A stretch of 64,000 nucleotides of DNA from Armatimonadia bacterium (GCA_039683575.1 JBDKRC010000010.1:1-64000); one strand, 5' to 3'; positions 33,636-55,777 are shown, counted from the stretch's first letter. The notes: generated by a model not told the origin, from the letters alone. Made by a program: numbers and translations.

Positions 33636-33691
33636 GGTGGTCTCCGGAGAGCGAATAGTGAGTAGCGAATGGCGAATAGTAACGGCGGGCT

Positions 33692-33767: not shown

Positions 33768-33803
33768 GGTCCGAGCGGGCGGGACGCCCGCAGTATGCGA
33801 TGG

Positions 33804-36482: not shown

Positions 36483-36678
36483 TCTTGACCGTCCTTCAGA
36501 TCGTTCATGCCCTCGCCTGTGCGCCCCGATGTACGCGTTATTCGTCGTCTACTGCACACGCACGGCCCCAGGCATTGCCACCGTCTGCCTCGCCCCGTGT
36601 GGGCGATCCTGGCGCAACTCTGCGGCAGTGTAGCGCCGGTCCGCTATTCTTTGGGGTGATCCTCCGCCCGCCGCCGCT

Positions 36679-37425: not shown

Positions 37426-37457
37426 TTCGGGTTCCTCCTTGTTTCGTTGACAGGAGG

Positions 37458-37496
37458 AGTATAGCGCATTAAACGAAATCGTTCAATAGCGTTTAA
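37458..37496 (-). promoter_or_regulatory. Promoter of the recombinase pair with an overlapping inverted repeat (possible res/operator site)
   Basis: Minus strand TTGAAC-17 bp-TATACT; TTAAACG (37469) / CGTTTAA (37490) IR. Confidence 0.55.
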
Positions 37497-37535
37497 CGTG
37501 CAAATGGCTCTTTGTTGATTCTGGCCTCGATCTTC

Positions 37536-38192: not shown

Positions 38193-38493
38193 GTCTCCGC
38201 CTCCATTCCCCGCGATTGTGCCGGTGATACCCTGCCGCCATCAAAGCTTCACACGCCGCCAGATCACTGAGCTCACACAGTTCTACGACGGACCGGTCCA
38301 GCGCATCGAGGCGGTCACGTTCCTCGCGAAACGCTTCCGCCTCAAGCATGCGCTGCGTGCGCTCCAGGGCATCGAACGCAGCCGCGGCATGTGCGGCCTT
38401 TCCGCCTCCGAGGTACTCGCGAACAACTCGCCCGTTGACCCTGCGGCTCCGGGTGTAGTATCGCCCGCCTCTGCTTCGTCGTTCCCAGGCCAC
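38164..38493 (-). CDS. Small Arg-rich hypothetical protein, likely nucleic-acid binding
   Basis: MAWERRSRGGRYYTRSRRVNGRVVREYLG; RBS AAGGAG upstream. Confidence 0.7.
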   Translation of the reverse strand: MAWERRSRGGRYYTRSRRVNGRVVREYLGGGKAAHAAAAFDALERTQRMLEAEAFREERDRLDALDRSVVELCELSDLAACEALMAAGYHRHNRGEWRRRRAPKQTAEE

Positions 38494-38560
38494 GTGTTGT
38501 GTAACTCCTTTGCATTTGCACCGCTCCGCAATAGCGGCGCGTCGTTGTGAGCTTGCTGGA

Positions 38561-38890
38561 TCACCCGCGTCTTCGTCTGTAGCGTGTTAGCCAGCGGTGC
38601 GTCCCTGCCGGCGTCGTGAGGCTGTGCTCCGGCGGATCGGGCCACCTGCAATGCCCGCCGCCCGGCCGGTGCGGCCACTGGTATGCCTCGCACGTGCAGG
38701 GGGGGACGTTCGGTTTCCCTTTTCGCCATGGAGGATAACCGCCTTTTGGTATGCGTCCCCGGTGGTGTCGTCCAGCATGGGCCATGCAGCGCTGTAGCGC
38801 ATCGCTCCACATTGCCCACGCGCGACACCGTTCGCCGTTCGCCTTGATGGCTGTGCATTGACGCAGTTCGCGCGCGCGTTCAGAGTACAT
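38561..38890 (-). CDS. Small Cys/His-rich protein (HGGxSTG-domain-like zinc finger)
   Basis: QCTAIKANGERCRAWA...RCMAHAG and CTC...HRPGGGHC. Confidence 0.55.
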   Translation of the reverse strand: MYSERARELRQCTAIKANGERCRAWAMWSDALQRCMAHAGRHHRGRIPKGGYPPWRKGKPNVPPCTCEAYQWPHRPGGGHCRWPDPPEHSLTTPAGTHRWLTRYRRRRG

Positions 38891-38995
38891 ACATGGCTCC
38901 CAGATTGCGTCTTCTGGTGGGCGATCGCAAAATGCCCACGCTGACTGCAAAAACTACAGAAAAGCGTTGCCCGGCCACGCATTGCTGTGAGGACC

Positions 38996-39135
38996 GGACA
39001 GAACGGACAGAACGGTTTCCTGCGTATCCTTCATCATCAAGTACCGACTGCATACTGTATTGGGTCGCTTGCACATCAGGCAGCTCATCCGACTTACAGT
39101 GAGCCGGAAACCGTTCTGTTCGTTCTAACTGTTCT
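38996..39135. repeat. Iteron-like direct/inverted repeats at the primase 3' end (putative ori)
   Basis: GGACAGAAC x2; perfect 14-bp IR ACAGAACGGTTTCC (39007-39020) / GGAAACCGTTCTGT (39106-39119); extra GTTCT units. Confidence 0.6.
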
Positions 39136-41326
39136 CCGGTTGGTCGGCTCTCAGGCCAATCCCAAGCCACACCCACGTCTTCGTGTCGCCCACGTTTCGT
39201 TGGCTATGCTGAAGATCGGGACGGAGTCTCTTCAGTGCCTTGCCGAACTGTCTGTCCATTGCAGGAGGCTTTCCTGTGCGTTCGCAGAAGGCGTTGTAAG
39301 CCCTGCGGAGGTGCTCCTTAGGGGTGACGGCTGCAGGGTCAAGAATCGTGTCTCTATCGAGCCATACTGCCAGCGGATCAGTGATAGTACGGAACTCCCC
39401 CCAGGCCTCTTGCATGGAGACAGTCTCCGCTATCCCGCGCGTTCTAACGCGCGCTAAGGCGGCCAACGCCATGTTCAGGACGCCCGACAACTCGTGCGGG
39501 TCGGCCAATTCAGCGTCCAGTTCGCCGCGCTTCCTCGCGGTCTTCTCGTCGAACGTCCGGGTGAATGGTACGCACAGCCAGCGCCTGAAGAAGGCGTGGG
39601 AGGCGTCAGGCGACTGTGGCGGGTGGTTGGCGCTGAAGACCAGGCGTGAATAGGGGATGAACGAGAAGCCCTCGCCATACTTGCGTTCTCCGTAGATGGG
39701 GTCGCCGCCGGTTATGGCCTTGAACATGCTCGTGCCGGCCAGGTGGGCAGACGGCAGGTCGGGGCAGATGTTGGCGACCTTGCCCACGAGACTCGCCGCG
39801 GCGAAGCGGTCCACCTCCAGCTTGTGCAGACTGACATTGGCGCAGTTCTGATGACCCACGAACGCGGTAAGCCCTGTCAGGAAAGTGCTCTTGCCATTCG
39901 CCCCTTCCCCAAGTAGCAGCACGGCCTTTTGGACCGAGGTGTCGGGAGTCATCAGCCAGGCAGCAAGTTCCCATGGCAGGTCCTGCGTGTCTTCTGGAAA
40001 TGTCTGGTGGACAAACCTGATCCACGCGGGGCACGAGGCTTCAGGATCGTATGCGACTGGTATCTGGACCGGTGAGAGATGCTCTGGGGAGTGTGGAGAC
40101 AGCTCTCCGGTATGGAGATCGAGCAGACCATTAGTGCAGTTGATGACTTTCATAGAGGGAACGGTCACGAGGTGCGGTGCGTCAACGCGGATATATTCTA
40201 CGACCTCATCCTGTCTGCGCGTCGACCACTTCTCACTAAGCCCCCAGTCTCGCATCAGGCGCTTCACGAGAGCCTTAATGCGCCGTTCGCCCTTGGGCTG
40301 GTAATAGCCACTATCGTAGACATAGAGCGAGAGACCGTCGTCAACCGCGAATGCCTCAGTCTCCAGTATGGCCGTCGCCACATTCGCAGCAGCGATTGCC
40401 CTTTCGCCTTCCACGCGCCCACCACCGCCGTCTTTTGCTCGCGGTTGGTTGGCCGTGCACATGCTACCCGTGGCGTAGAACTCGGTTGCCTGCTCCAATG
40501 CCTTACGGATCGTGCGTTCGCCGTAGGTGCTATCGCCTCTCATTTCATCCCACTTCGCGCGCATCCGCCCGGACTGCCGGAAGAGCGAATCGACGCGAGT
40601 TGGATCGCCGCCTGTCCAGAACGCCAGGTAGTTGCACAGTGACAGGTCGCCGGCACTGTCGTCCTCGGGAAAGGCGCCCTCCCACAGACGCGAGAAGTCC
40701 CTGCCGTTCTTCGCGGCCCTTGCCTTGCCAAGAAGCTCGACGTCGGTTAAGTCTGTAGTGCCGGTCAGGTTGCGCTGGGGCGCAGGAACCGCCGCCGCTT
40801 TCCTGCCGAAGACGCGCTGATGAAGCGCCTCAAGCTGCTCCTGTCGGTGCTCGATGCTCGCGGGAGTGCCCGCCAGGTGTTGGCCTGTGACTGTGAAGTA
40901 CCGTGGGCTGCCAGGTCCGTACATCTCGATGTCTCCCTTACGCCGACCGCCAGGCGGCAACTCTGCCCAGAGGAGAACATGGATTCCGGTTCCGCTCGGA
41001 CTTGCCTCGCTGTAAGACGCAAGGAGTTCCACAATCTCCTGCGCCCACGGCTCCACTCCCCCCGTACGTGGATCCCGGCAGTCGTCCAAATCAACTCCAC
41101 ACAGCCCATTGTCGAACATGATTCCCAGACCGTCGAAATGCCTCACCTGCAGGCAGGCCGTCGCGAAGTCCGTCCAAGTAGACGGATCGTTCGACTTGGC
41201 GCGCCTCTCCGTCGTCGGGTTGTACGGCACCTTGGTTGGCTTGCTGTTGCGCAGCTCTGACCGCCAGCACACCCAGGCCGGGCGGGTCTTCAGACACGCG
41301 GGGAGGTTGGGCAGAAGGTCTATCAT
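39125..41326 (-). CDS. Primase-polymerase/SF3 helicase fusion (P4/D5 family, NrS-1-like)
   Basis: WVCWR...KVPY, DLDDC and SPSGTGIH AEP motifs; LAFWTGGD...LFRQSG helix bundle; D5-N domain; Walker A GEGANGKS. Confidence 0.92.
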   Translation of the reverse strand: MIDLLPNLPACLKTRPAWVCWRSELRNSKPTKVPYNPTTERRAKSNDPSTWTDFATACLQVRHFDGLGIMFDNGLCGVDLDDCRDPRTGGVEPWAQEIVELLASYSEASPSGTGIHVLLWAELPPGGRRKGDIEMYGPGSPRYFTVTGQHLAGTPASIEHRQEQLEALHQRVFGRKAAAVPAPQRNLTGTTDLTDVELLGKARAAKNGRDFSRLWEGAFPEDDSAGDLSLCNYLAFWTGGDPTRVDSLFRQSGRMRAKWDEMRGDSTYGERTIRKALEQATEFYATGSMCTANQPRAKDGGGGRVEGERAIAAANVATAILETEAFAVDDGLSLYVYDSGYYQPKGERRIKALVKRLMRDWGLSEKWSTRRQDEVVEYIRVDAPHLVTVPSMKVINCTNGLLDLHTGELSPHSPEHLSPVQIPVAYDPEASCPAWIRFVHQTFPEDTQDLPWELAAWLMTPDTSVQKAVLLLGEGANGKSTFLTGLTAFVGHQNCANVSLHKLEVDRFAAASLVGKVANICPDLPSAHLAGTSMFKAITGGDPIYGERKYGEGFSFIPYSRLVFSANHPPQSPDASHAFFRRWLCVPFTRTFDEKTARKRGELDAELADPHELSGVLNMALAALARVRTRGIAETVSMQEAWGEFRTITDPLAVWLDRDTILDPAAVTPKEHLRRAYNAFCERTGKPPAMDRQFGKALKRLRPDLQHSQRNVGDTKTWVWLGIGLRADQPENS

Positions 41327-41517
41327 TTGGCTTCCTCTGGAGTGGCTTCGGTCGGCGTCGCGGTCGTGGGTTTCTCCCAGCTTGCGAGTAGGTCACAGAA
41401 GGCACTCATGTTGCGAATAGCCTCCCGTGCGTCCTCCTCAGAGACATGCTTCCCTGTCCGCTCCTCCCAGAAGCGGCGGGTCTGCTCCACGACGTCCGGC
41501 GAGAGTCCATGCGCCAC
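41323..41517 (-). CDS. Small hypothetical protein
   Basis: 64 aa, translationally coupled to the primase (4-bp overlap). Confidence 0.65.
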   Translation of the reverse strand: MAHGLSPDVVEQTRRFWEERTGKHVSEEDAREAIRNMSAFCDLLASWEKPTTATPTEATPEEAK

Positions 41518-41520
41518 GAG

Positions 41521-41727
41521 CTACGCCTCAACTCTCTGCTTGGGCTGCAGACGCCTGCGCAGGGCATCGATTTGCGCCTCGTCGTAGTAGCGGTATCCTC
41601 GATGGTCACGGTATGGCGCGACGATTCCCGTCCGCTCCCATCGCCAGAGCGTCGAACGGGAGATACCCAGGGCTCGCAGTACCTCGCCGATGGGCCTCAA
41701 CGCCTCGTCATGCTTCACACCCGTCAC
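41521..41727 (-). CDS. MerR-type HTH protein (excisionase/AlpA-like)
   Basis: IGEVLRALGISRSTLWRWERTG...RDHRGYRYY. Confidence 0.85.
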   Translation of the reverse strand: MTGVKHDEALRPIGEVLRALGISRSTLWRWERTGIVAPYRDHRGYRYYDEAQIDALRRRLQPKQRVEA

Positions 41728-41860
41728 CTCTTCCGATGCCTGCTACGCATTGCATCAAGTTGCAGCGTGGCGTAGTATGGTGCAGAGTATGACAGGGGAT
41801 GCTATTGAGAAATAGTCCCAAACACGGTGCTAAGTGTCGCCATTCCGCAGGAGGTAACAG

Positions 41861-43033
41861 GTGTCTGGTTCCGTCGAGGATCACGAGCTGCTTAGTGCGG
41901 TGACGGCGCTACAGATGAGACGGTTTCTCACCGAACTGCCGGATGGGGTCTCCCATCCCTTAGTGCTGCCGAGACACGAGCGCGACCGGGTGGTGTGCGA
42001 CTTTTCTGCGCCAAGGTTCTACTTGCCTATTCGTAAAGCAAGTAAGCCTCGTCGTTGGATCGAAAGGGCAATTGCGCCGGTCGCCGAGCTCACGGAGCGT
42101 CATGAAGAGGTGGGGGAAATGGGGAAGTGGACGTATGACTGGTACTACTTCGAGTTACTGGATCGCGACCGCGTTCTGCGTCCACTGTTTTGGCTGAGCG
42201 CGCAGCTACTTCACCATTCCTTCACTGATGATAGACCCTTGAGACAGATCAGTGGCAGCATGTGCGAACGTGTGGGCCACTTGCGTCAGTTTCTGACGAT
42301 GGACTATGTCAACGGGGGGGCGAGCGACGGCAGCTCCCGTGAGATAGAGTACGCAGATGAATGGCGTGCCTGGTTTGCCGAGACATTCCGCGCACATGAG
42401 GCGGAGTGGCTTGCGTCAGGTGATCTTCTCTATGCGAGTGTAGGGCCTTGGCTCCAGCACCTACAGTTCGATCAAGACCTGCTTCACGAGCAGGGGGCGA
42501 AGCGCTCAAGGTCTGACCTGAAAGGCCGGGGCCACAGTTGGAAGAGCAAATTCCCGTCGGGTCTTCCCGGCGTCTACTGGAAGATGGTACCCGTGTATGA
42601 CGGCGAGCTCAGAGGGGCGCTGTGGCGGGCGATGCAGCATGAACTGTACGTGACATCGGTCTTCAATTTGGGTGCCACTCAGGATCGGGACCCCGAGCTG
42701 TGGCAGCGCATCGAGGAACGGTTTGCCCTGCCTTACCAGCGCATGAGTCGATATCGCTACTACGAGCGAGCGCGTGAGCAGGAGGTACTTGAGTTGAGCC
42801 TGCAGGACTATACCTTGGATGAGATCGCAGTAGCGCTGGTGGATAAAGGCCTTCACCCCATAAGCCAAGACCTCTATCCGCCGCCTCCGCCGCAACCTGG
42901 CACAGATCAATACGACACTGCCGTCGCATCCGCCCGGCGCGCCGCAGAACGCAGGCGGAAGGTCCTGCGCGCAGAGGGTTCGCTTAAGCTCGGCAAGCCG
43001 GGTAGGCGAAAGAAGGAGACAGCAAAGTCCTGA
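41861..43033 (+). CDS. Hypothetical protein divergent from the replication module, possible C-terminal HTH
   Basis: GGAGG RBS plus GTG; LELSLQDYTLDEIAVAL; basic tail. Confidence 0.7.
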   Translation: MSGSVEDHELLSAVTALQMRRFLTELPDGVSHPLVLPRHERDRVVCDFSAPRFYLPIRKASKPRRWIERAIAPVAELTERHEEVGEMGKWTYDWYYFELLDRDRVLRPLFWLSAQLLHHSFTDDRPLRQISGSMCERVGHLRQFLTMDYVNGGASDGSSREIEYADEWRAWFAETFRAHEAEWLASGDLLYASVGPWLQHLQFDQDLLHEQGAKRSRSDLKGRGHSWKSKFPSGLPGVYWKMVPVYDGELRGALWRAMQHELYVTSVFNLGATQDRDPELWQRIEERFALPYQRMSRYRYYERAREQEVLELSLQDYTLDEIAVALVDKGLHPISQDLYPPPPPQPGTDQYDTAVASARRAAERRRKVLRAEGSLKLGKPGRRKKETAKS

Positions 43034-43311
43034 TTCTCTGCCGCCTCGTCATCACAATGGTGGTGTCTACATGGGGATGATGGACCCGTTGTTAAGCGGG
43101 TGCTAACCATCATCTTAGCGGCTGTTTGTGCATCTTCCAGGGGTACCGGCCAGTCTGTCTTACTCTACCGCAAATCCTTAGGAGGTGCCGGCTGCCTGAC
43201 TGGCGAAAGGCAGCAACGCCGCACGTGGAGCTTCGGGGGGTGTCGCTGGATCAAGCTGAAACCCTCTGTTCCCTCCCCCGCCTGCCCACATACGAGGACG
43301 TGATACGCAAT

Positions 43312-44958
43312 ATGGCACGAGGCTCAAAGAAGCCTGCCAAGAATGGCGGGCCGCTGGACTTCAAGGAGAAGCTCTGGGAGGCCGCGGATAAGCTGCGCGG
43401 TCACATGGACCCCGGTGAGTATAAGCACGTCGTCCTGGGCCTGATCTTCCTCAAGTACATCTCCGATGCGTTCCAGGAACTGCACGACAAGCTGAGCGCG
43501 ACTGCCGCGACCGAGCACACCGACCCGGAGGACCGGGACGAGTACCTGGCTGAGAATGTCTTTTGGGTGCCACAGAAGGCCCGGTGGGCGGAGCTGCAGG
43601 CCAAGGCGAAGACGCCGGAGATTGGCCGTCTGCTGGATGACGCGATGCTTGCCATCGAAAAGGACAACCAGTCCCTGCGCGGGGTGCTACCCAAGATCTA
43701 CGCCAGCCCTGACCTCAACAAGGAGCGCTTAGGCGAGGTTCTGGACCTGATTGGCACTGTGGGATTGGGAGACCCCGAAAGCCGCCGTATGGACGTCCTG
43801 GGGCGCGTCTATGAGTACTTTATCGGGAAGTTCGCGAGCCAGGAGGGGAAGGCCGGCGGGGAGTTCTACACGGCGGCCTGTGTGGTGCGCTTGCTGGTCG
43901 AGATGTTGGAGCCGTTCCACGGGCGTATCTACGACCCGTGCTGCGGGTCGGGGGGCATGTTCGTGCAGAGTGAGCGCTTCGTCGAGACCCACGGCGGGCG
44001 GCGCACCGACGTGGCGGTGTACGGGCAGGAAAGTAACCCCACGACCTGGCGGCTGGCCCGCATGAACCTGGCGATCCGCGGGATAGACGCCAACCTTGGG
44101 CCACACCACGGCGACAGCTTCCACCACGACCTGCACCCTGACTTGAAGGCTGACTTCATCCTCGCCAATCCCCCTTTCAATGACAGCGACTGGGGCGGGG
44201 AGCGTGTGCAGAATGACCCCCGCTGGAAGTACGGCGCCCCTCCGCCCAACAACGCCAACTTTGCCTGGGTGCAGCATTTTCTTCACCATCTGGCGCCAAA
44301 CGGCACGGCGGGCTTTGTTCTCGCGAATGGCTCGATGTCGAGCACCTTCTCGGGTGAAGGCGACATACGTCGCCAGATCATTGAGGCTGATCTGGTGGAC
44401 TGCATGGTGTCGCTGCCAGGGCAGCTTTTCTACACCACGCCGATCCCCGTTTGTCTGTGGTTCTTGGCGCGGGACAAGCGTAACTCGGGTAAGCGCGACC
44501 GCCGCGGCGAGACCCTGTTCATTGACGCTCACAGGATGGGAGCAATGGTGGATCGGGTGCACCGGGAGTTGACCGACGACGACGTCGCTGCCATCGCGCG
44601 CTGCTACCACGCTTGGCGAGGGGAGCCCAAGGCGGGCAGATACGAGGATGTGGCCGCCTTCTGTAGGTCAGCCACGATCCAAGAGATTGCTCAGTATGGC
44701 TTTCTGCTGACGCCAGGTCGGTACGTGGGCGCTGAGGAAGTGGAAGACCAGTCCGAGCCATTCGCGCAGGTCATGACCCACCTTACCGCACAGCTTTGGC
44801 ACCGGATGGATGAGGCCGGGCGGCTTGACTTGACCATCACGAGGAGTTTGGGCAGCCTGGGCTATGGGCGCAGCCAGCCATCGACAGAGCACCTTGGCGA
44901 GGCCGGTGGGCGCGCAGCAGGTACGCGAGTAGAGAACTCGGGCGCCGACAATGGGTAA
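43312..44958 (+). CDS. hsdM: Type I R-M methyltransferase subunit
   Basis: [32 protein letters not shown]; start MARGSK after a GAGGA RBS. Confidence 0.95.
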
Positions 44959-46306
44959 CCCAGTCTGCTGGGAAAGCGTGCGTCTCGGCGACTTAGTCCA
45001 GATTGTGCACGGATGGCGGTTCGAGAGCGAGTACTTCCGGGACACCCCACCTGGGGATGTACTTCTGACCCCCGGCAATTTCCGGGAAGGTGGTGGCTTC
45101 AAGGGCGACGCCCTGAAGTACTACGATGGGCCCGTCGCCGATGGGTATGTCCTGGCTGAGGGTGATCTCCTCGTAACGATGACTGACCTGAGCAAGCTCG
45201 GGCGGACATTGGGTTATCCCGCCTTCGTCCCAGGCGCCCCCCCCGGACAGAGATACTTGCACAACCAACGATTGGGCAAGGTCATCGTTGGCAGCCCAAC
45301 CCGTCTACTGCAACGCTTCCTGTACTATCTTCTATGCACTTCGGATTACAGGCATGAAGTGCTGGCCGGAGCGACCGGCACGACCGTTCGGCATACGTCA
45401 CCCAGCCGTATTGCCGCGTTCAGGTTCCGATTGCCGTCACTTCGTGAGCAGAAGGCTATCGCCCACATTCTTGGTTCGCTGGACGACAAGATCGAACTGA
45501 ACCGGCAGATCAACGAGACACTGCAGGAAATCCTGCGGGTCGCCTTCAAGTCCTGGTTCATTGACTTCGACCCGGTGCGGGCAAAGGCGGAGAGGGGGCA
45601 GCCCGCCGGCATGGACGCTTCCATCGCCGATCTCTTCCCCAATGAACTTGAAAGCACGGATCTGGGTGAAGCGCCCAGAGGCTGGCAGACAGGGACGTTG
45701 GGTGGCGTGGCGCACCAAATGCGTAGGGTGGTGACCCCTGAAGAAGCAACCCCGGAGACACCCTACATTGGCCTTGAGCACATGCCGCGCAGGTGCATTA
45801 CGTTGTCCACGTGGGGTACCGCGGATGAAGTTGCCAGCGGCAAGTACGGGTTTCTGCAAGGCGAATTGCTGTTTGGGAAGCTCCGGCCCTACTTCCACAA
45901 GGTTGGGGTTGCACTCGTAGATGGCATTTGCTCAACAGACATTCTGGTCGTTGCGCCCAAACAGCCTGAATGGCAGGGGTTCGTGGTAGGCCACCTGTTC
46001 AGCGACGCACTTGTGGCCCATGCGGACGCCCATTCGACCGGGACGAAAATGCCCAGGACCAACTGGCCCTCGATGGCCGGTTACAAGGTCGTGTTGCCGC
46101 CGACGGCGTTGGCAGCGGCTTACAACGCGGTGGTGTCACCCATGCTGGAGGCCATCCGCAACAACGTGCTGCAGTCCCGCACTCTCGCGTCCATCCGCGA
46201 CGCGCTGCTGCCGAAGCTGCTGTCCGGTGAGCTCCGCATTGACGACCCCGAAGCCTTCCTGCCCCACGCCCAGGCCGGCGCCCCCGAAGAGGTGCAGGAG
46301 AGATGA
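44951..46306 (+). CDS. hsdS: Type I R-M specificity subunit
   Basis: Two TRDs; [36 protein letters not shown]. Confidence 0.93.
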
Positions 46307-48000
46307 AAGCGGACGAGCTGTTCATCGAGAAGATGTTGCACGGCACGGATCAGTACCTGATCCCGGTCTTCCAGCGCTACTACGAATGGACGTCCGATGA
46401 GTGGCAGCGCCTGTGGGACGACATCACTGCCCTGTTGGAGGAAGACGCCAAGGCAGAGCACTTTATGGGGCCGATGGTGGCTGTCGCCCACAATCCCACA
46501 CCTGGCTCGGTGCCGCAGTACCTCATGATCGACGGCCAGCAGCGACTGACGACGATCGTGCTGCTGCTCTGCGCCATTCGGGACTTGGCCGCCGAACACG
46601 AGCTGGAGAAGATCAGGGGGCAAATACAGGATCAGTTCCTGCTCGACCAGTACAAGACGGGGATGGATCAGTACAAGGTCATCCCGCGCCAGCGCGACCG
46701 CGCCGGGGTCATGAAGCTGATGGAGGGTAAGGTCGACGAGAGCGCCGGGCGCCCGCTGGAGTGCTACAACTACTACGTGAAGCAGATTAGGCAGGCGATG
46801 GCTGAGGGCAAGGCCCTGGAGACGATCTTCGCTGCCGTGGCGAAGCGCCTGACCCTGGTCATGATCACCCTGACGGACGAGAACCCCTTCGAGATCTTCG
46901 AGACGCTCAACTCCACCGGCAAGCCGCTGGAAGAGGCGGACCTCATCCGCAACTACGTGTTCATGAAGCTGTCCTTCACCGACCAGGACGACTTCGACGA
47001 GAACCTGTGGCGACCATTCGAGGATCGCTTCTCCGCCCACGGCGAGCACAAGCTGATCCCGCTCAGTGATTACTACCGCGACTACCTCATGCGCGATGGC
47101 ACGTATGTCGTCAAGCGACACACTTATGTGGACTTCAAGAAGCACATGGATGGGCAGGACGACAAGAACGGCTTTGAACCTACGGAGTTGGCGCTGAAGC
47201 TGGACGGATACGCCCAGCTCTACACGAAGATCTGCCGACCGCGTACTTACATAGAAGACGAAGACATTCAGCGGGAGTTGCGGTACATTGCGCGGCTGAG
47301 TAGTGCTGGCACCGCCTACCCACTGGTACTCAACCTGCTTGGCCGGCACAAGGACGGCACGCTCGCCAAGGCCGAACTGCTGGAGTGCCTTCGAGCTCTC
47401 CAGAGCTTCGTCATCCGGCGCTCCATCGGCGGTGAGTCCACGCGCGCGTATGGCCGCTGGTTTCCCGGAGCTATCAGCGAGTGCAAGGACGGAGCTGTTC
47501 TGGAGGGGCTGATCGGCTACTTCAAGAAGCGCGTATGGCCGGCGGATGAGCAGTTCAGGGCAGAGCTCAAGAGCTTCCAGCTGTATCGGCGCGAGTTCGA
47601 CATGACCCGCTTGATGTTGATCGCGCTGGAGGACTGCTGTCAGCACAAGGAGCCGGTTGACGTAGACGCTGGGGTGACCGAGGAGAAGCTGACTGTTGAA
47701 CACGTAATGCCGCAGGGCATAGTGGACGACGCCAAGGGCGAAGCTTGGAAGGCGGTCTTGGGGCCCGATTGGGAGAAGGTCCAGACCAATCTCATGCACA
47801 CCCTGGGGAACCTGACGCTGAGTGGCTACAACCGGGAGCTCTCGAACGAACCCTACGAGACGAAGCGCGAGGAACTGAAGAACAGCCATCTGGAGATCAA
47901 CAAGTACTTCGCCGGCCAGGACACGTGGGACGCGGCGGCGATCGACGCGCGGACGGACCACCTGGCCGATCAGCTGGCAAGCATCTGGCCGGTACTGTAA
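46303..48000 (+). CDS. GmrSD-like type IV restriction protein (DUF262 + DUF1524)
   Basis: IPVFQRYYEW, IDGQQRLTT, FETLNSTG; EHVMPQ...LGNLTL...N HNH-like motif. Confidence 0.92.
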   Translation: MKADELFIEKMLHGTDQYLIPVFQRYYEWTSDEWQRLWDDITALLEEDAKAEHFMGPMVAVAHNPTPGSVPQYLMIDGQQRLTTIVLLLCAIRDLAAEHELEKIRGQIQDQFLLDQYKTGMDQYKVIPRQRDRAGVMKLMEGKVDESAGRPLECYNYYVKQIRQAMAEGKALETIFAAVAKRLTLVMITLTDENPFEIFETLNSTGKPLEEADLIRNYVFMKLSFTDQDDFDENLWRPFEDRFSAHGEHKLIPLSDYYRDYLMRDGTYVVKRHTYVDFKKHMDGQDDKNGFEPTELALKLDGYAQLYTKICRPRTYIEDEDIQRELRYIARLSSAGTAYPLVLNLLGRHKDGTLAKAELLECLRALQSFVIRRSIGGESTRAYGRWFPGAISECKDGAVLEGLIGYFKKRVWPADEQFRAELKSFQLYRREFDMTRLMLIALEDCCQHKEPVDVDAGVTEEKLTVEHVMPQGIVDDAKGEAWKAVLGPDWEKVQTNLMHTLGNLTLSGYNRELSNEPYETKREELKNSHLEINKYFAGQDTWDAAAIDARTDHLADQLASIWPVL

Positions 48001-48018
48001 ACAGCTGGGGGAGCAACC

Positions 48019-51000
48019 ATGCCCGCGTTCATCACCGAGTCGGAAGTTGAGAGGTCCGCCCTCGGCTACCTGAGCGACCTCGGCTACGAGGTGCTGTACG
48101 GCCAAGACATCGACCCTGAGAAGCCGGCACAGGAGCGGCAAGATTTCGGTCAGGTCGTCCTGGCGTGGCGGCTCAGAAGCGCCCTGGGCAAGCTCAACCC
48201 ACAGGCCGACGGGGAAGCGCTCGACGACGCCATGCGCCAGATCCTGCGCGTCGACAGCCCGAGCCTGGTGGAGAACAACCACAGCTTCCATCGGATGGTC
48301 ACGGACGGGGTCTCAGTGCCCTGCCGCAAGGCCGACGGAACGCAGGGCTACCAGCAGCTCAGGCTGCTCGACCACGACGACCCGAAGGCCAACGACTTCC
48401 TGGCGGTCAACCAGTTCACCGTCTTGGAGGACAAGCACCATCGCCGTCCCGACATCGTGATCTTCCTCAACGGCCTTCCTGTGGCCGTCTTCGAGATGAA
48501 GAACCCCGCGGATGAGAAGGCGACGGCGAAGAGCGCCTTCAAGCAGCTACAGACCTACAAGAAGCAGATCCCCACCCTATTTCAGTTCAACGAGCTGCTG
48601 ATCGTCTCCGATGGCCTGACCACCAAGGTCGGCTCCCTGACCGCCAACTGGGAGTGGTTCCTGCCTTGGCGCACGGCTGACGGGGAGACAGTTGCGCCGA
48701 AGACGGAGCTGCAGCTAAGGACGCTGGTGCAGGGCGCCTTCGACAAGTCGCGCTTGCTGGACCTGATCCGGTACTTCGTGGTCTTCGACACCAGCGGAGC
48801 CGCGGCTGTGAAGAAGATCGCCGCCTATCACCAGTTTGGTGCGGTGAACAAGGCCGTCGAGTGCACGGTGAAGGCCTCCCGGCCCGAAGGTGATCGGCGA
48901 GCTGGCGTCGTGTGGCACACGCAGGGGAGTGGGAAGAGCCTGTCGATGGCCTTCTATGCCGGGAAGATGGTGCAGCATCCGGCGATGGAGAACCCGACGA
49001 TCGTGGTGCTGACCGACCGCAACGACCTGGACGACCAGCTGTTCGGCACCTTCTCGGCGTGTCAGGGGCTGTTGCGCCAGGCGCCAACACAGGCCCAGAG
49101 CCGCGACCACCTGCGGGAGTTGCTCAAGGTCGGCTCGGGCGGCGTAGTCTTCACAACTATCCAGAAGTTTTTCGCGGGGAAAGGGGAGCAGCACCCGCAG
49201 CTATCCGACCGGCGCAACATCGTGGTCATCGCGGACGAGGCACACCGCAGCCAGTACGACTTCATACGGGGCTTGGCAAAGCATATGCGCCAGGCTTTGC
49301 CGTATGCGTCATTCATCGGCTTCACAGGCACCCCCATTGAACTTGCTGACAAGAGTACCCCCGCAGTCTTTGGTAGCTACATCGACATCTATGACGTAGC
49401 CCGCGCTGTCGAAGATGGTGCGACGGTCCCCATCTACTACGAGGCCCGCCTGGCGAAGATCGAACTGCCTGAGAATGAGCGTCCCAAGGTCGACGAGGAC
49501 TTTGAGGAGGTTACCGAGGACCAAGAGGAGACCGAACGCGAGCGCCTGAAGACGAAGTGGAAGCAGCTGGAGGCGGTCGTTGGCACCGAGAAGCGCCTGC
49601 GCCTGATTGCCGCGGACATCGTAGAGCACTTCGAGAACCGGCTGGGGGCAATCGACGGCAAAGGGATGATCGTCTGCATGAGTCGGCGGATCTGCGTCGA
49701 CCTCTACAAGTACTTGGTCGAACTTCGCCCGGAGTGGGGATCCGAGGAGGACGAGGCGGGCACCCTCAAGGTCGTCATGACCGGCAACCCCTCGGAAGAG
49801 CTGGCGTGGCAGCAGCACATTCGGAACAAGCCGCGGCGTGAGGCTTTGGCGCGGCGCTTCAAGGACCCGAAGGACCCGTTCAAGCTGGTGATCGTGCGGG
49901 ACATGTGGCTCACGGGCTTTGACTGTCCGTCGCTGCACACGATGTATGTGGACAAGCCGATGCAGGGGCACGCGCTGATGCAGGCCATCGCTCGGGTTAA
50001 CCGGGTCTTCCGAGACAAACAAGGCGGGCTCGTGGTGGACTATCTGGGGCTGGCGGCGCAGTTGAAGAAGGCGCTGGCGGCCTACAGCGACAGTGACCGT
50101 CAGGAAGCTGGCGTGGACTTGGACCTCGCGGCGAGAGTGCTCCGGGAGAAGTACGAAGTGGTAGTGGACATGTGGCACGGCTTCGACTATTCGGACTGCC
50201 TCAGCGGGACGGGACAGATCAGGTTGGAGGCCCTGCCAGGGGCCTTGGAGCACATCCTGCAGCTGGAGGATGGGAAAAAGCGGTACTTGGAGGCGGTGAC
50301 GGCGCTGTCGCGGGCCTTCGCGCTGGCGGTGCCTCACGACTACGCCCTGTCCATTCGGGACGAGGTGGGGCTGTTTCAGGCCATTCGTGCGGGGCTGGCC
50401 AAGGGCGAAGATGACGAGAATGGCGACGGCGGGGAAAGGCAAGCCAGCCCTGAAGACGTGGAGTTAGCTGTTCGTCAGATCGTATCGCAGGCTGTATCCG
50501 CCGATCAGGTTGTGGACATCTTCTCCATCGCGGGGCTGGACAAGCCAGACATCTCCGTGCTCTCAGAGGAGTTCCTTGAAGAAGTCCGCGGCATTAAGCA
50601 GAAGAACCTGGCGGTCGAAGCCCTGCGGCGCCTGATTGAAGACACCATCAAGACGCGCGGGCGAACGAACGTGGTGGAGTCGCGGAAGTTCTCGGAGATC
50701 CTGGTGGACACGATCAAGCGCTACCAGAACCGGACGATCGAGGCCGCAGCGGTCATTGAGGCGCTGATCCAGCTCGCTAAAGACATGAGGGACGCCCAGA
50801 AGAGAGGGGAGAGCCTGGGGCTGAGCGAGGAGGAAGTCGCCTTCTACGACGCGCTGGAGACCAATGACAGCGCGGTGGCGGTGCTCGGTGACGATACCTT
50901 GCGCGCCATCGCTCGCGAGCTCGTGGAGGCCGTCAGGAAGAACGCGTCGATCGACTGGACGGTACGTGAGAGCACTCGCGCAAAGCTGCGGGTGATCGTG

Positions 51001-51105
51001 AGGCGGACGCTCAAGCGGTTTGGGTACCCGCCGGACAAGCAGGAGAAGGCGACGCAGACAGTGCTGGAGCAGGCGGAGCAGCTGTGCCGAGAGTGGGCGG
51101 GGTAG
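48019..51105 (+). CDS. hsdR: Type I R-M restriction subunit
   Basis: RPDIV...EMKN nuclease, [36 protein letters not shown]. Confidence 0.96.
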
Positions 51106-51165
51106 GCCGGAGTTCGCAGGATGAAGGCGGACGCGGGCGCGAGACTACACGGGAGGTCGAGACGG

Positions 51166-51642
51166 ATGTCAGACTGCGAGAGCTACATGCTGTACTGGAG
51201 AAATGACTGGCTCGAACAGCTGCCCGAAGAACCATTGAACCATCTCGCCAGCAACCAGCTGAGCCCGAAGGAGGTCCATACGGGCGACGTCATCTGGGCA
51301 GTCACGGTCGATCAGGCCAGGCTCTATCTGTTGGGCAGGCTAATGGTTGCGGAGCTGATCGTGGGACAGAGAGCTGCGGAGAAGCGTCTGGGTACCACTG
51401 ACCTCTGGGAGGCCAAGTACCACGTGATCGCCACGAGAGAGAGCCGTGTTCGATGGCAGCCTCTCGACATCACCCAACTGGCCCCCGAACTGCGCTTCAA
51501 GAGCAATAAGTCGCCTCGCCTGACTATCGTTGAGGGTGAGGTGGTTTGGCATCAGCTGCAGGCCATGCGCACCCTAACTCTGGAGACTTCACGGCGGCTT
51601 GAGCTGGCCTGGGCGGCAAGGCCGCGAGCGCAGGGCAAGTAG
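51166..51642 (+). CDS. Hypothetical protein, putative PUA/EVE-like domain without a nuclease
   Basis: GGAGG RBS; VHTGDVIWAVTV...LYLLGRLMV beta pattern reminiscent of PUA-superfamily domains; fold is inferred. Confidence 0.6.
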   Translation: MSDCESYMLYWRNDWLEQLPEEPLNHLASNQLSPKEVHTGDVIWAVTVDQARLYLLGRLMVAELIVGQRAAEKRLGTTDLWEAKYHVIATRESRVRWQPLDITQLAPELRFKSNKSPRLTIVEGEVVWHQLQAMRTLTLETSRRLELAWAARPRAQGK

Positions 51643-51715
51643 CCTCCCGGTCGCGAAGCCGATAGACGACCGACACGGACACGCACTCTGACAGGGATTG
51701 CCGGGGAGGCACACG

Positions 51716-52162
51716 ATGCGCGTCTACGGGAGCATACAGGGAGTTGATCCGGGCACGTGGTTTGAGGACCGACGGGCGCTACATGAGGCCGGCGTCCACC
51801 GGCCCCTTCAGGCGGGCATCTGTGGCTCCGCCGCAGAGGGCGCGGAGTCGATCGTGATGTCTGGGGGATACGAAGATGACGAAGACCATGGGGACGTCAT
51901 CATCTACACGGGGCATGGCGGCAACGACACCGAGACCGGCCAGCAGATAGCCGATCAGGAGCTCACCCGGCAGAACCTGGCCCTCGCCCGGAACGCGATG
52001 GATGGCACCCCTGTCAGGGTCATAAGAGGGTCAGGACACAACTCCCTGTTCGCACCTGCCAGAGGCTACCGCTATGATGGTTTGTTCGAGGTGCAGGAGT
52101 ACTGGCAGGAGAGAGGCAGGTCCGGCTTCATGGTCTGGCGCTACAGGTTGGTCAAGCGATGA
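51716..52162 (+). CDS. SRA/YDG domain protein (5mC reader), no HNH domain
   Basis: GVHRPLQAGICG, SIVMSGGYEDDED, IYTGHGG, PVRVIRG, YRYDGLF. Confidence 0.9.
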   Translation: MRVYGSIQGVDPGTWFEDRRALHEAGVHRPLQAGICGSAAEGAESIVMSGGYEDDEDHGDVIIYTGHGGNDTETGQQIADQELTRQNLALARNAMDGTPVRVIRGSGHNSLFAPARGYRYDGLFEVQEYWQERGRSGFMVWRYRLVKR

Positions 52163-52418
52163 CAAGGCTCACTAGTACACGCCTGACTTCCTGGTGAAGC
52201 TGGCGAATAGCCTGACGCTGATCGTGGAGATCAAGGGCTACGAGACCGAGCAGGATCGCCAGAAGCACACGGCGGCGGGTCGGTGGGTGGCAGCCGTCAA
52301 CAACGCCGGGCGCTGGGGTAGGTGGGCGTTTGTCGTCTGCAAGGAGACTGCTGCCTTGCCGAAGGTGCTGGAAAAGTACTACACCGGCTCTGGACGCGAC
52401 CACAGTGTCGCGCGGTAG
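52158..52418 (+). pseudogene. C-terminal remnant of a type III restriction (Res-like) endonuclease
   Basis: One frame reads DDKAH*YTPDFLVKL...IVEIKG...WVAAVNNAGRWGRWAF (PD-ExK motif); in-frame TAG at 52173; no helicase part. Confidence 0.75.
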
Positions 52419-52462
52419 GACAAGAGCCGCTGCCGCCACCGAGCCGCGTGGAGAGTGTGTCC

Positions 52463-55400
52463 ATGACAATTCCGGGATTCTCAGAGCAGTCTTTGGCGAA
52501 GGAGTGGCTGGAGCGTGGCGTGGACGAAGCCTTCCAGGAGCTGGCTGCCTCCCTGCTCAGGGAGGACTTCCCCAGTCTACATGCATATCCCGCTGGCGGA
52601 AAGGACGGCGGCATTGATCTCTGCGGCGTCTTCGACAATGGTGGACAGGTCTTTGTGCAGTGCAAGCATCTTGGCGAGAACGGGGCAAAGGCAGCGCTGG
52701 CGGCATGGGGCAAGGATGCTGAGCGTCTGGGCACCCATATTGCAGACCCGGATGGCCCGACCAAAGGACAGGCACAATACGGGCCGTGGTATGACACCAA
52801 GAACCCCGTCAGGCAATACCGCCTCTGCGTCAGTTCCATAGCGAAGAACAGGGACCAGACAGACGAGATCAGGGACACGATTGAGGCGTTCTTCGTCAAC
52901 CTGGCGACCGAGCACCCTCATCTTGCGCATCTGGGCGCCGTTGAGGTCGTGGTAGACGATTGGGCCGACCTCACGGCCCGCCTTGAACGCCGCCCTGACC
53001 TGCTCTTCCGCTTCTTCCCTGAGACACGTCCGCGCAGCCTCGTGCCGATAGAGGCACACAAGACCGTGGGGACCTTCCGCTCCTATCTTGAGGACGCGAA
53101 GCTACCCTACTACAGCCGATCCGCCCATGCGCGGGCCTATCCGCCGCCCCAGGGGATCACGATCCCGCAGGAGCGAGCACTCATCGACCGTCTCGCATCC
53201 GATGACCTCACGGGGCTGATCGTGACAGGGGCTGGCGGGATCGGCAAGACCCGTCTCGCGCTTGAACTCGCCCTCCAGGCGCACGGGGAGGGCTGGCTGG
53301 TCCTATTCGCTCCCCACCAACTGCGCTATGAAGACATAACGTACCTCGGCGAAACCCCCCTTGTCGGAACTCGCGTGCTTGTCTTGCTCGATTACGTGGA
53401 GACGCAATCCGAGTTTGCGCAGTGCGTCCAGCGGATGAGTGAGCTCAACGACGCCCTTGAGTTCCAACTGCGCTTTGTTGCCAGCTGTCGCAAGACCTAC
53501 TACTCCAAGATCCAGAGCCTCGACGGACAGCTGGAAGTCCCGCTTTCTCCTGTGGGCTCGCCTGGGTGGGCGGCCTGGGAGGAGGATTACCAGCATCACG
53601 CTGTTCGGCACATCCTGACTGCGACTGGCGTTCCACTCGGCGATCATGAGTTGCGGCTGTGCCGCGATGTGCCTATCCTGGCTGTGTTCCTGGCCTATTT
53701 GCTTAAGAGCAAGCGAACGGAGGCCTTTCAGCAGCTGTTGGCGGAGGAGGACTTCGGCAGATGGGTTCTCCGCCGCCTCGAAATGACATTCCCCGGACGG
53801 CGTCTTGAGAGAGAGCTTGCGCTGCTGCTGCCTCAGTTTCCACTCTCAGACTCTATTGGGATGAGGCTGAGCGCAGACCAACGTGACGTGCTGGACCACC
53901 TCGCCACGGACGGCTGGGTGGAGAAGATGACTGCTGGGGATGCCGCGGCGGCGGACGTGTGGGAGGTGGCGCACGACGTACTGGCGGACCAGGCCGTACT
54001 CAGCTACATCAGCGGCATACCGCACACACTGGAGGAATGGGTGCGGGATGTCCTCCAGACCGCTGAGAGCTTGGGGACGCTACCTTCTGCTCTCGTGTCG
54101 TTGCAGCGCATTGCGTCACTGCTTCCTGGACCGGTCAGGTGGTCTGCGCTGATCGAGGAGAGAATCTCGCGTGCCTTCGAGCAATGGCAGACGGTGCGCA
54201 ACCTGCTCACATGGACCTCACTGCTCTCCGTGGGTGAGGCCCTGTCACTTCTCGACAAGTTCCCTCGCCTGTGGGAAGGGGCGGAAGCCGATACTGATTT
54301 CCAGAACCGTCTGGGATGGTTCGCTCGGATCGCCACGCGCGACGATCCGGATGTAGTGACCGAGGAGCAGCAGGCAGTCCTCAAGGCTTGGATCGCCCGT
54401 GCGGCCCCCTACTGCACTGCCTGCAACTTCATGCTCAACTGGGGGTTGCGACTGGCCCCTCAGGAGTTGCGTCCGTGGGTTCTCGATGCAATAACCAAGC
54501 ATCCCGACCAACACCAGACCCACTTCCCCATCGCGACGTGGCTGAGGACAGAGCTTCCGCCGGAGGAGATCCAAGGTGCTGTCTCAGCCTGGCTGGGCAG
54601 CTTCGCGACGGCAAATCGGGCTTCGTTCGTCTACGCGGGCTGGCTGAACGCCGGAGGGGACAAGGTCGCCGTCCAGAAGCACATGGAGAAGTGGCTGGCA
54701 GAGCACGAGACGGCGCTGGGGGCTTCGTTCGTCTACCAGGGCTGGCTGGACGCCGGAGGGGACACGGCGTTCGTCCAGGAGCACATCGAGCAGTGGCTGC
54801 CGCTGCATCAGAGGGCGCTGGAGGAAGCGTCGTTCGTCTACAAGGCCTGGCTGGAGGCCACGGAGGACACGGTCTTCGTCCGGGATCACATTGAGATGTG
54901 GCTGGGGGAGCACGAGACGGCGCTGGAGGCGCGGTTTGTCTATAGGGCCTGGCTAAATAGTGGAGGCGATCCCAACTTGGTGCGAGATTCGGTGAGGGCA
55001 TGGCTGCGCGCGCACGGGCTCGAACTCGAAGCTGACTACGTGCTGAGTTCTTGGGCACGCCGCCTGGGCGAATGGGCAGAGCTGAAGGAGTTTGCCATCG
55101 TTTGGCTGGCGAGGCACAAGACTGAGGCAGTAGCCTCATACGTCGTGAAGTACCTCGCACGGGAAGACGAGCTTCCCGAACAGTGCGTCAGAGACATTCT
55201 GGAGTGGTGCCGCATCTTCGCTGACCAAGAAGATGTCATAACCCGTTTCACCCGCCTCAGGAAGCATCTCTGGCGCCCGGAGTTGGCGGATGATGTCGTA
55301 ACTACTGCTGAGACGCTACTCGGAGCGATCATTGACAGGAGCGAGGTACCCGCCGCTCTTGACAACGAACAAGCGATGGCGGCGCTGAATTGGTTGATTG

Positions 55401-55777
55401 GGAATAGAGCACTCCGGAATGGTCCTCTCGCCCATCGGGTCGACGCACTCCTGGTCCGCTGGCTTCGTTTCCCGCACTCATACGGGCCGGTGGTCGCCAC
55501 TGCCTTCCTGCAGCATCATAGCACGGTGCGACGCGTGTGCAACGCAATTGGGAGAGGCGAACTGAACGTTGTAGCTGATCGCGGGGCGCTGGAGCGCTTT
55601 CTGCAATGGGTCAACGGATGGACACCGAAGAACAGGGTCGGGATAGTCCAGACGTTGGACTACGCAAGGCGCCACTACCCGGCAGAGGGCCTGTGGGAGA
55701 TCGTGCAGGTGCCGCACCTTGAGCGTTCGGATGACGCGTCTTCTCCCGAAGACGCTGCACAGGAGGAGACAGGCTGA
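52463..55777 (+). CDS. REase-like nuclease + P-loop (STAND-like) NTPase + 34-aa repeat protein; putative antiviral NLR-like protein
   Basis: DGGIDL...VQCK Mrr-like motif; Walker A GAGGIGKT; Walker B LVLLDYVE; C-terminal ASFVYxxWL repeats. Confidence 0.8.
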   Translation: MTIPGFSEQSLAKEWLERGVDEAFQELAASLLREDFPSLHAYPAGGKDGGIDLCGVFDNGGQVFVQCKHLGENGAKAALAAWGKDAERLGTHIADPDGPTKGQAQYGPWYDTKNPVRQYRLCVSSIAKNRDQTDEIRDTIEAFFVNLATEHPHLAHLGAVEVVVDDWADLTARLERRPDLLFRFFPETRPRSLVPIEAHKTVGTFRSYLEDAKLPYYSRSAHARAYPPPQGITIPQERALIDRLASDDLTGLIVTGAGGIGKTRLALELALQAHGEGWLVLFAPHQLRYEDITYLGETPLVGTRVLVLLDYVETQSEFAQCVQRMSELNDALEFQLRFVASCRKTYYSKIQSLDGQLEVPLSPVGSPGWAAWEEDYQHHAVRHILTATGVPLGDHELRLCRDVPILAVFLAYLLKSKRTEAFQQLLAEEDFGRWVLRRLEMTFPGRRLERELALLLPQFPLSDSIGMRLSADQRDVLDHLATDGWVEKMTAGDAAAADVWEVAHDVLADQAVLSYISGIPHTLEEWVRDVLQTAESLGTLPSALVSLQRIASLLPGPVRWSALIEERISRAFEQWQTVRNLLTWTSLLSVGEALSLLDKFPRLWEGAEADTDFQNRLGWFARIATRDDPDVVTEEQQAVLKAWIARAAPYCTACNFMLNWGLRLAPQELRPWVLDAITKHPDQHQTHFPIATWLRTELPPEEIQGAVSAWLGSFATANRASFVYAGWLNAGGDKVAVQKHMEKWLAEHETALGASFVYQGWLDAGGDTAFVQEHIEQWLPLHQRALEEASFVYKAWLEATEDTVFVRDHIEMWLGEHETALEARFVYRAWLNSGGDPNLVRDSVRAWLRAHGLELEADYVLSSWARRLGEWAELKEFAIVWLARHKTEAVASYVVKYLAREDELPEQCVRDILEWCRIFADQEDVITRFTRLRKHLWRPELADDVVTTAETLLGAIIDRSEVPAALDNEQAMAALNWLIGNRALRNGPLAHRVDALLVRWLRFPHSYGPVVATAFLQHHSTVRRVCNAIGRGELNVVADRGALERFLQWVNGWTPKNRVGIVQTLDYARRHYPAEGLWEIVQVPHLERSDDASSPEDAAQEETG
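54518..55234 (+). repeat. Intragenic tandem repeat, 102-105 bp period
   Basis: Unit starts at 54620, 54722, 54827, 54929, 55031 and 55133, with a degenerate unit at 54518. Confidence 0.85.

Follow-up and report, generated by a model that had tools for sequence, protein, structure and literature searches.

The window analysed here, a stretch of 64,000 nucleotides from an Armatimonadia bacterium (GCA_039683575.1, JBDKRC010000010.1:1-64000), contains a gene for a 1104-residue protein that is likely to act as a stand-alone antiviral pattern-recognition protein of the STAND class (signal-transducing ATPases that have numerous domains; Avs-type, resembling NLRs, i.e. receptors that combine nucleotide binding with leucine-rich repeats), and that is carried as cargo of a 20.9-kb tRNA-Asp integrative island. 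We base this reading on the fold, the invariant motifs and the swapping of effectors within the family, and on the accessory, patchy distribution, the island context, the lack of a partner gene and the plasticity of the sensor. The protein is a probable member of the already large Avs-type group, not a new kind of system; in it, a nuclease of Avs4 type is joined to an NTPase core that resembles those of Avs5 and nSTAND proteins and to a Trp-rich repeat sensor of its own. The gene and its parts are as follows.

52463..55777, + strand: whole gene for the 1104-aa nuclease-STAND-repeat protein, stop codon included (reading frame and homolog start alignment)
52463..53032, + strand: effector, residues 1-190, PD-(D/E)xK (Mrr-like) nuclease fold (domain model and structure match)
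52604..52666, + strand: catalytic motif D48...D52...Q66-x-K68 (conservation in 43 relatives)
53168..53542, + strand: nucleotide-binding domain, approximately residues 236-360, with Walker A, Walker B and R343 (Pfam, conservation and EfAvs5 match)
53228-53251, + strand: Walker A, within the nucleotide-binding domain
53378-53401, + strand: Walker B, within the nucleotide-binding domain
53543..54022, + strand: helical and winged-helix domains, approximately residues 361-520, with P404 and H504-D505 (structure match and conservation)
54023..55717, + strand: alpha-solenoid, presumed sensor, approximately residues 521-1085 (all-helical model and generic solenoid matches)
54620..55126, + strand: five clear Trp-rich 34-aa two-helix repeats, residues 720-888 (family profile and DNA repeat D1)

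The sole long reading frame at these coordinates spans 52322..55777 (+); translation from the ATG at 52463 gives the product of 1104 aa, and this start is backed by homology, as residue 1 pairs with residue 1 in 55 of 109 homologs. The gene and motifs reported in an earlier note on this DNA were, overall, confirmed. The full-length AlphaFold2 model (predicted local distance difference test, pLDDT, 88.3; predicted template modelling score 0.65) comprises three parts, i.e. an N-terminal PD-(D/E)xK nuclease, a complete STAND/NOD (nucleotide-binding oligomerization domain) NTPase module and a C-terminal alpha-solenoid. The effector-NTPase-sensor layout that had been proposed is thereby borne out by the models and structure matches, as nuclease fold, NOD module and a helical sensor of approximately 565 aa, and the protein has the broad Avs layout of N-terminal effector, STAND NTPase and C-terminal sensor of at least 400 aa in one polypeptide. 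Three contigs of a metatranscriptomic library are 100% identical to the window (51939-52168, 52344-52521 and 55074-55265); within the gene, they cover its 5' end and an internal stretch. They provide a weak hint of transcription, with DNA carry-over in the library being possible; the sequencing runs contained just 5-7% of the sampled words, and uncovered parts of the gene are uninformative. A scan for sigma-70 and terminator consensus sequences gave nothing useful upstream of the gene.

The nuclease motif reads K47-D48-G-G-I-D52, followed by V65-Q66-C67-K68. Both halves of the motif described earlier (DGGID and VQCK) are present, but they are separated by a spacer of 12 residues, not 10. D48, D52 and K68 are invariant in 43 of 43 aligned relatives; position 66 is Glu in 41 of these, Asp in one, and Gln in the window protein itself. 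The assignment as a PD-QxK motif is therefore true of this protein, but the form of the family is ExK. Across 117 motif-bearing family proteins the same position is occupied by Glu in 108, Gln in seven and Asp in two, and the seven Gln-66 members differ in the surrounding sequence. Gln-66 in the window protein is a single-base difference from Glu. Mrr-type nucleases usually have QxK and, with the recurrence of Gln-66 in seven of the 117 proteins, this leads us to regard the nuclease of the window copy as probably active and possibly attenuated.

The fold agrees with the motif. In an exhaustive structural alignment against 48,161 representative chains, the model of residues 1-190 (pLDDT 94.9) found its best match in residues 1-185 of Avs4 (8dgf_A; Z 9.5, root mean square deviation 4.3 A, 147 aligned residues), followed by BspD6I (Z 8.3 and 8.0), MspJI (7.6), AF1548 (7.5), FokI (7.5), LlaBIII (7.3) and AspBHI (7.0). 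A Foldseek search with the N-terminal domain alone returned no match at E<=1e-3, and its weaker matches were mostly restriction enzymes. On the model, the domain is assigned to the PD-(D/E)xK restriction-endonuclease fold. No match of the window protein to Pfam Mrr_cat (PF04471) was found at E<=1, and two of 37 relatives matched this profile (best E 0.0018). The sole PADLOC match of the protein was to the candidate model PDC-S73 (E 1.3e-6; residues 21-76 against positions 11-66 of the 752 of the profile); membership was rejected, as the match is 56 residues long, is found in one of 37 family members and represents the shared nuclease motif. No relevant literature was found on PDC-S73.

The exchange of Glu for Gln at a catalytic position might also be taken to mean that the window copy is a decaying or disarmed allele of a defence family, and gene erosion at this spot is evident from an 80-aa restriction endonuclease remnant directly upstream (52176-52415). 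We consider this very unlikely: the frame of 1104 codons is intact, all NOD motifs are present, the C-terminus aligns to within about 20 residues of the ends of its relatives, parts of the gene are covered by the RNA-library contigs, and both the recurrence of Gln-66 in diverse sequence surroundings and the prevalence of QxK among Mrr-type nucleases argue against decay. The remnant is an 80-codon open fragment on the + strand, between the genes for an SRA protein and the STAND protein, that lacks a start codon and matches the C-terminal end of BPTD_3080-family/type III restriction endonuclease subunit R genes (35 plasmid records, 35-45% identity); it is what remains of a lost restriction gene.

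The NTPase module carries the two Walker motifs, A and B, that had been reported as GAGGIGKT and LLDYVE, here G256-A-G-G-I-G-K262-T263 and L306-V-L-L-D310-Y-V-E313; they fit, respectively, the P-loop pattern GxxxxGK[ST] and a hydrophobic strand with an acidic residue at its end. Invariant in all of 37 full-length relatives are G256, G258, G259, G261, K262, Y311, E313, R343, P404, H504 and D505, and D310 is kept in 36. As the nuclease and NOD motifs are invariant or nearly so across the 43 and 37 relatives, respectively, their conservation indicates that they are under selection and are not chance strings. Matches of the window protein to Pfam were all below cut-off (AAA_16, 27.0 bits, cut-off 32.6; nSTAND_NTPase5, 24.4 bits, cut-off 34), with nSTAND3 at 17.7 bits, and a search of NCBIfam returned nothing meaningful. 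Among the 37 relatives, 31 match AAA_16, 26 match nSTAND5 (E<=0.1) and 12 match nSTAND3; a trypsin-bearing relative (P0172) reaches 40.3 bits for nSTAND_NTPase5, above the cut-off of 34 bits.

By structure, the module superposes on NLRC4 (4kxf_B; Z 15.8, 309 aligned, residues 179-616), on EfAvs5 within the nucleotide-binding domain (Z 14.9, residues 190-412) and on SAMD9 (Z 13.7, residues 184-656), and NLRP3, NOD2, Apaf-1 and SAMD9 superpose at Z 12-14 (Z 12-13 for the first three). The top matches of the whole model against the Protein Data Bank (PDB) in Foldseek were SAMD9 (E 2e-9), Avs4 (8dgf; 2.4e-8) and Avs3 (8dgc; 1.1e-7), followed by NLRC4 and EfAvs5. The features that define STAND proteins are present, i.e. 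Walker A, Walker B, and nucleotide-binding, helical and winged-helix domains in the order known from NLRs and Apaf-1. Since H504 is invariant and lies within the range of superposition, it would correspond by position to the conserved winged-helix His of NLRs and Apaf-1.

A helical-repeat C-terminus had also been claimed, and the AlphaFold2 model is indeed all-helical from approximately residue 505 onwards. In addition to the five clear Trp-rich repeats, the hidden Markov model built on the family detects a weak sixth copy upstream (residues 691-716). Each 34-aa unit contains two Trp-Leu pairs and a Gly-Gly-Asp turn, and the repeat is also seen in the DNA (repeat family D1, 54620-54969, spacing 102-105 nt). 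Copy number ranges from 0 to 25 (mode 6) in 179 family proteins of at least 1000 aa and correlates with protein length in the same set (r 0.72); variation in repeat number therefore accounts for length differences among the family members. Neither tetratricopeptide repeats (TPR) nor any other repeat family of Pfam matched the window protein at E<=1, in agreement with the earlier description of the sensor as Trp-rich and not a canonical TPR; judged from the model, the two-helix unit would be TPR-like in geometry only. Structure matches of the solenoid were restricted to generic ARM, HEAT and PUF proteins at Z 12-17, a range that the aligner rates as uninformative for helical repeats. Pfam names found on relatives, such as Slx4, PTH2, RXLR, Endotoxin_mid and Smr, were rejected, as they lie in the Trp-rich repeats and comprise zero significant stretches. 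Five homologs (P0002, P0004, P0020, P0056 and P0099) carry the source labels 'IS5 family transposase', 'DNA-nicking Smr family endonuclease' or 'peptidyl-tRNA hydrolase'; these labels appear to be artefacts of low-complexity matches inside the Trp-rich repeats.

The family is large and its members exchange effectors. A word-indexed search yielded 109 other protein clusters of 27-43% identity, nearly all of them unnamed metagenome proteins, and in an exhaustive profile search of 1.84 billion representatives, the sequences retrieved at E<=1e-30, E<=1e-10 and E<=1e-3 numbered 694, 1064 and 1866, respectively; some family members are present in the NCBI nr database. In a scan with one genome per species, 33 homolog loci (29-42% identity) were found in a patchy distribution over at least eight phyla (Acidobacteriota, Chloroflexota, Planctomycetota, Cyanobacteriota, Gemmatimonadota, Pseudomonadota, Verrucomicrobiota and Actinomycetota). 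The gene is single-copy in its own genome and was found in none of 40 related genomes (completeness 66-98%), among which three belong to its genus and a further 12 to its family. The nuclease domain is kept in 93 of the 109 homologs, and in the others the first 185-190 residues, approximately, are replaced: by a Peptidase_C14 caspase in six of eight variants scanned, and among seven further variants by Trypsin_2 in two and TIR_2 in one, with the other four N-termini matched to no domain. Defence-type enzymes are swapped on one NTPase-sensor chassis, as in the broad Avs group; one chassis with alternative cell-killing effectors is a hallmark of Avs and other NLR-like conflict proteins.

This exchange bears on the possibility that the protein has no immune function and, in the manner of MalT or AfsR, is an ATPase with a role in regulation or scaffolding, whose N-terminal domain has a nuclease-like fold and does not cleave. 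STAND clades with and without an association to defence are intermingled (Lee et al. 2026, PMC13581612), and Gln at position 66 in place of the family Glu and the matching of Mrr_cat by just two of 37 relatives (best E as given above) would fit such a protein. Yet all N-terminal domains that are swapped in belong to cell-killing types (caspase, trypsin-like or TIR), neither the Lys nor the metal-binding Asp residues vary, the Pfam and NCBIfam searches of the window protein revealed no output domain for DNA binding and no other domain with a regulatory role, and the gene is accessory and island-borne; we therefore regard a non-immune role as highly improbable.

The STAND gene is located at the right end of the island, whose limits and remaining content are listed below.

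34959-35036, + strand: tRNA-Asp, left island edge
35023-35114, + strand: attL, left copy of a 92-nt direct repeat, beginning inside the 3' end of tRNA-Asp
35025..52162, strand unassigned: other island cargo (context, not part of the system; domain searches)
55963-56054, + strand: attR, the 92-nt repeat's right copy (88% identity), 186 nt past the STAND stop codon

The island (34959-56054) measures 20.9 kb, and the two repeat copies are 20,940 nt apart. Its cargo comprises two serine recombinases, a D5/NrS-1-type primase-helicase, HsdM, HsdS, GmrSD, HsdR, a 173-aa unknown and a stand-alone SRA protein. The description of the STAND gene as the last of an island full of restriction genes is borne out, with the type I restriction-modification (R-M) system, GmrSD and SRA upstream and the att repeats delimiting the island. 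The right repeat contains a terminator-like hairpin with a U-run (-28.2 kcal/mol, z -6.3), which was missed by the consensus terminator scan. Beyond the repeats, one flank has ferritin and oxidoreductase genes and the opposite flank a heparinase-II-like gene. A metagenomic DNA contig of sequencing run X1 fuses the T-arm of tRNA-Asp straight to 55963-56300 (approximately 95% identical) and represents the unoccupied integration site in a relative. A search for empty sites in genomes of the same genus placed the flanks on different contigs, and no clean attB was recovered there. In one genome of the same genus (L040, G002:C92) a serine recombinase of 81% identity adjoins an identical tRNA-Asp. 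Sampled over 1.7 kb inward, the DNA next to this recombinase shares no similarity with the cargo of the present island, and the same integration module may carry different cargo in that genome.

Within the island, the type I R-M operon harbours a gene of GmrSD type (type IV, modification-dependent; 46303-48000, +), placed after HsdS and before HsdR. HsdR is followed by two small, stand-alone genes (51121-51642 and 51698-52162, +); one of the two encodes a 154-aa SAD/SRA protein (Pfam E 5e-53) and the other the 173-aa unknown, for which fold neighbours are, as a lead, fused elsewhere to HNH, NucS_C, Nmad3, EVE, HIRAN or TIR; the two may be modified-DNA readers left without a nuclease partner. 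Elsewhere in the window, a stretch of about 78 nt between a flavodiiron-like and a ferritin gene (approximately 33690-33768) has dozens of matches on both strands in two genomes of the same genus (G002 and G003; 76-85% identity) and looks like a palindromic, REP/MITE-like dispersed repeat. The gene at 60020-60670 (+) encodes a protein with a prepilin-type N-terminal methylation motif and DUF1559; this gene type is typical of Planctomycetota, and fits the Planctomycetota metagenome-assembled genomes among the homolog hosts.

The STAND gene appears to have no fixed partners. None of 12 island proteins recurred in tblastn searches of the 33 homolog loci, and in a clustering of 380 neighbour open reading frames (ORFs) from these loci no family occurred in more than four. 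A partnership with SRA or with the type I R-M system was rejected, since no conserved partner gene lies beside the homologs. The earlier proposal of a single-gene system holds at the level of the module: with no conserved neighbour gene, the protein would act as a single-gene module.

Several observations weigh against an antiviral reading, and the first concern the neighbourhoods. Neighbour genes were called by a simple longest-ORF rule, and the nearest three ORFs of at least 90 aa on each side of the 33 loci (139 ORFs) were compared with a distal set of equal size (a random draw of 139 out of 191 more distant ORFs, which belong to 26 of these loci). The commonest Pfam families of the 139 nearest ORFs are housekeeping (SRP54, RimM and BNR/Sortilin, three each), and two integrases are found among them. 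PADLOC families at E<=1e-5 numbered 44 in the proximal and 28 in the distal set, which is a crude family tally without genome-wide background or per-locus mapping. The proximal matches include MADS components, LmuA, SspH, QatC/D, a ThsB-like TIR protein and Tn7-like TnsB/TniQ, and the distal ones include MADS, SspH, TIR, Pycsar and retron-type families. On this crude measure, some homologs do have defence genes in their surroundings, with a somewhat higher tally in the proximal set; no claim of enrichment follows. The earlier note had made its interpretation depend on homologs being enriched near defence genes, and this is not clearly seen, with nearest neighbours being mainly housekeeping genes. 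Further, tblastn against 72,556 records of plasmids and 50,697 of phages detected no relative; the generic solenoid matches of the sensor carry no information on a ligand; the scores of the NTPase are below the curated Pfam cut-offs; and the change of the catalytic Glu to Gln could weaken catalysis in the window copy.

The same neighbourhoods could point to an NLR-like conflict protein whose target is not phage, i.e. one directed at other mobile elements (plasmids or rival islands) or serving regulated cell death or self/non-self discrimination. Cyanobacteria, actinobacteria and similar groups with complex lifestyles have many STAND-effector proteins for which roles of this sort have been suggested; the present family resides mainly in Acidobacteriota, Chloroflexota, Planctomycetota, Cyanobacteriota and Gemmatimonadota, and most homologs are found amid housekeeping genes and not in obvious defence islands. 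In four Acidobacteriota genomes (loci L002, L003, L013 and L030) the homolog is flanked by the same housekeeping neighbours; the identical flanking genes suggest stable residence at a chromosomal site, unlike the island location here. Caspase, trypsin and TIR effectors are stressed in the literature on conflict systems (Kaur et al. 2021, PMC8195603), and the carriage of the STAND gene by a mobile island would suit this possibility as well. Against it, all tested STAND families of this layout (Avs1-5 and Avs7-24) are phage-responsive or protective, as reported in Lee et al. 2026 (PMC13581612); the window gene lies beside classical anti-phage systems, and no data obtained here point to a non-phage trigger. 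We consider a non-phage target rather unlikely, and an antiviral STAND protein the preferred interpretation.

As to its place among named systems, the checks by PADLOC and Foldseek that had been suggested for this protein were carried out, together with structural alignments of its domains. PADLOC 2.0.0 returned no named system: no Avs/AVAST, bNACHT or other named-system model matched the window protein at E<=1 or the 37 relatives at E<=0.01. The structure searches recovered the NOD and nuclease folds. The PDB, when searched by sequence with the profile of the family and with the N-terminal domain, returned only P-loop noise and designed repeat proteins, and the Avs3, Avs4 and Avs5 chains are unmatched by sequence. 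That the protein cannot be assigned to a named Avs type, as the earlier note stated, is thus upheld, and its interpretation stands in part: the layout, the single-gene module and the non-TPR repeat are supported, but 'unclassified' and 'new system' are overstated. The NTPase adjoins Pfam nSTAND_NTPase5 and nSTAND3, the nuclease shares the fold of the Avs4 effector, and the overall plan is that of Avs4; and Lee et al. 2026 have already defined 589 STAND clades and named Avs7-24.

The order of parts is identical to that of Avs4 (EcAvs4, 8dgf), with Mrr-like nuclease, STAND NTPase and helical-repeat sensor in one polypeptide. A sequence relation, however, is undetectable (8dgf was absent from profile and single-sequence searches of the PDB at E<=1 and E<=10, respectively), the window protein is approximately 430 residues shorter than the Avs4 chains of 1534-1541 residues, and its sensor is made of another, Trp-rich 34-aa repeat; Avs4 recognises the phage portal protein. 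By structure, the nearest NTPase cores are those of the Avs5/SAMD9-like proteins (EfAvs5, 9jap; AVAST5, 9nc9; human SAMD9, 9zjw), but there is no sequence match to these chains and the effector of the window protein is a PD-(D/E)xK nuclease. The Avs5 NTPase is described as Pfam nSTAND3 (bioRxiv 10.1101/2025.07.08.663546), which agrees with the structural nearness of the window NOD to Avs5. Reported effectors are SIR2 in Avs5, PNP in Avs6 and, for both Avs9 and SAMD9, AlbA_2 plus SIR2 with an OB fold (PMC12680541); with PNP in Avs6 and AlbA_2 in Avs9, the architecture of the window protein fits neither, as these two are portrayed in that source.

The nearest specific models for the NTPase are Pfam nSTAND_NTPase5 (PF25199) and nSTAND3 (PF20720); they describe the NTPase only, neither a system nor a function, and the window protein scores below the gathering score. 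Neighbouring clusters in the Atlas bear nSTAND3 or nSTAND5, and some also Mrr_cat; no relevant literature was found on nSTAND5. With NLRC4, NLRP3, NOD2 and Apaf-1 the NOD superposes over approximately 300 residues (Z 12-16), whereas these eukaryotic proteins have leucine-rich repeat or WD40 sensors and recruit partners by adaptor domains, in place of the effector enzyme that is fused in the window protein.

Among the 589 STAND clades in Lee et al. 2026 (Nature, PMC13581612), 198 are defence-associated; the same source gives 684 structural clusters of sensors, of which the 90 most prevalent were analysed, and reports triggers or protection for Avs7, Avs8 and Avs10-24. It also equates PD-Lambda-4 of PADLOC with Avs8; PD-Lambda-4 is among the PADLOC models without a match to the window protein. 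As the seeds of that survey include proteins found via Mrr effectors, nSTAND clades are placed on its tree, and NCBI nr contains some members of the present family, this family may well have an entry among its clades already. The clades nSTAND1 and nSTAND2 were introduced in Kaur et al. 2021 (PMC8195603).

By analogy to the solved Avs3, Avs4 and Avs7, the STAND protein would, at rest, have its sensor folded back onto the ADP-bound NOD. A conserved protein of an invader, most likely a phage, would bind to the solenoid and release the autoinhibition; the NOD would then oligomerise in an ATP-dependent manner, and the nuclease domains, brought together and activated by proximity, would cut DNA without sequence specificity. 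The infected cell might die or arrest in consequence, before the phage cycle is completed.

A more far-reaching proposal, which we put forward tentatively and would not ourselves expect to hold in full, is that the family represents a distinct, unnamed Avs lineage, in which an Avs5/SAMD9-like NTPase core is linked to an Avs4-type nuclease. Its sensor would be a modular array of a hitherto undescribed Trp-rich 34-aa repeat; it might be tuned in specificity by gain and loss of repeats (0 to 25 copies), much like the highly repetitive sensors of fungal NLRs, and might recognize a class of triggers outside those of Avs1-24, e.g. a protein conserved in the poorly known phages that infect Planctomycetota and Acidobacteriota.

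If confirmed, the protein would represent an Avs-type receptor from phyla without tested defence systems (Planctomycetota, Acidobacteriota and Chloroflexota). Its sensor, as a repeat array, would be easy to dissect, since natural variants are distinguished chiefly by the number of repeats and by the effector that is fused, and the family would provide a convenient model for specificity change in bacterial NLR-like sensors.

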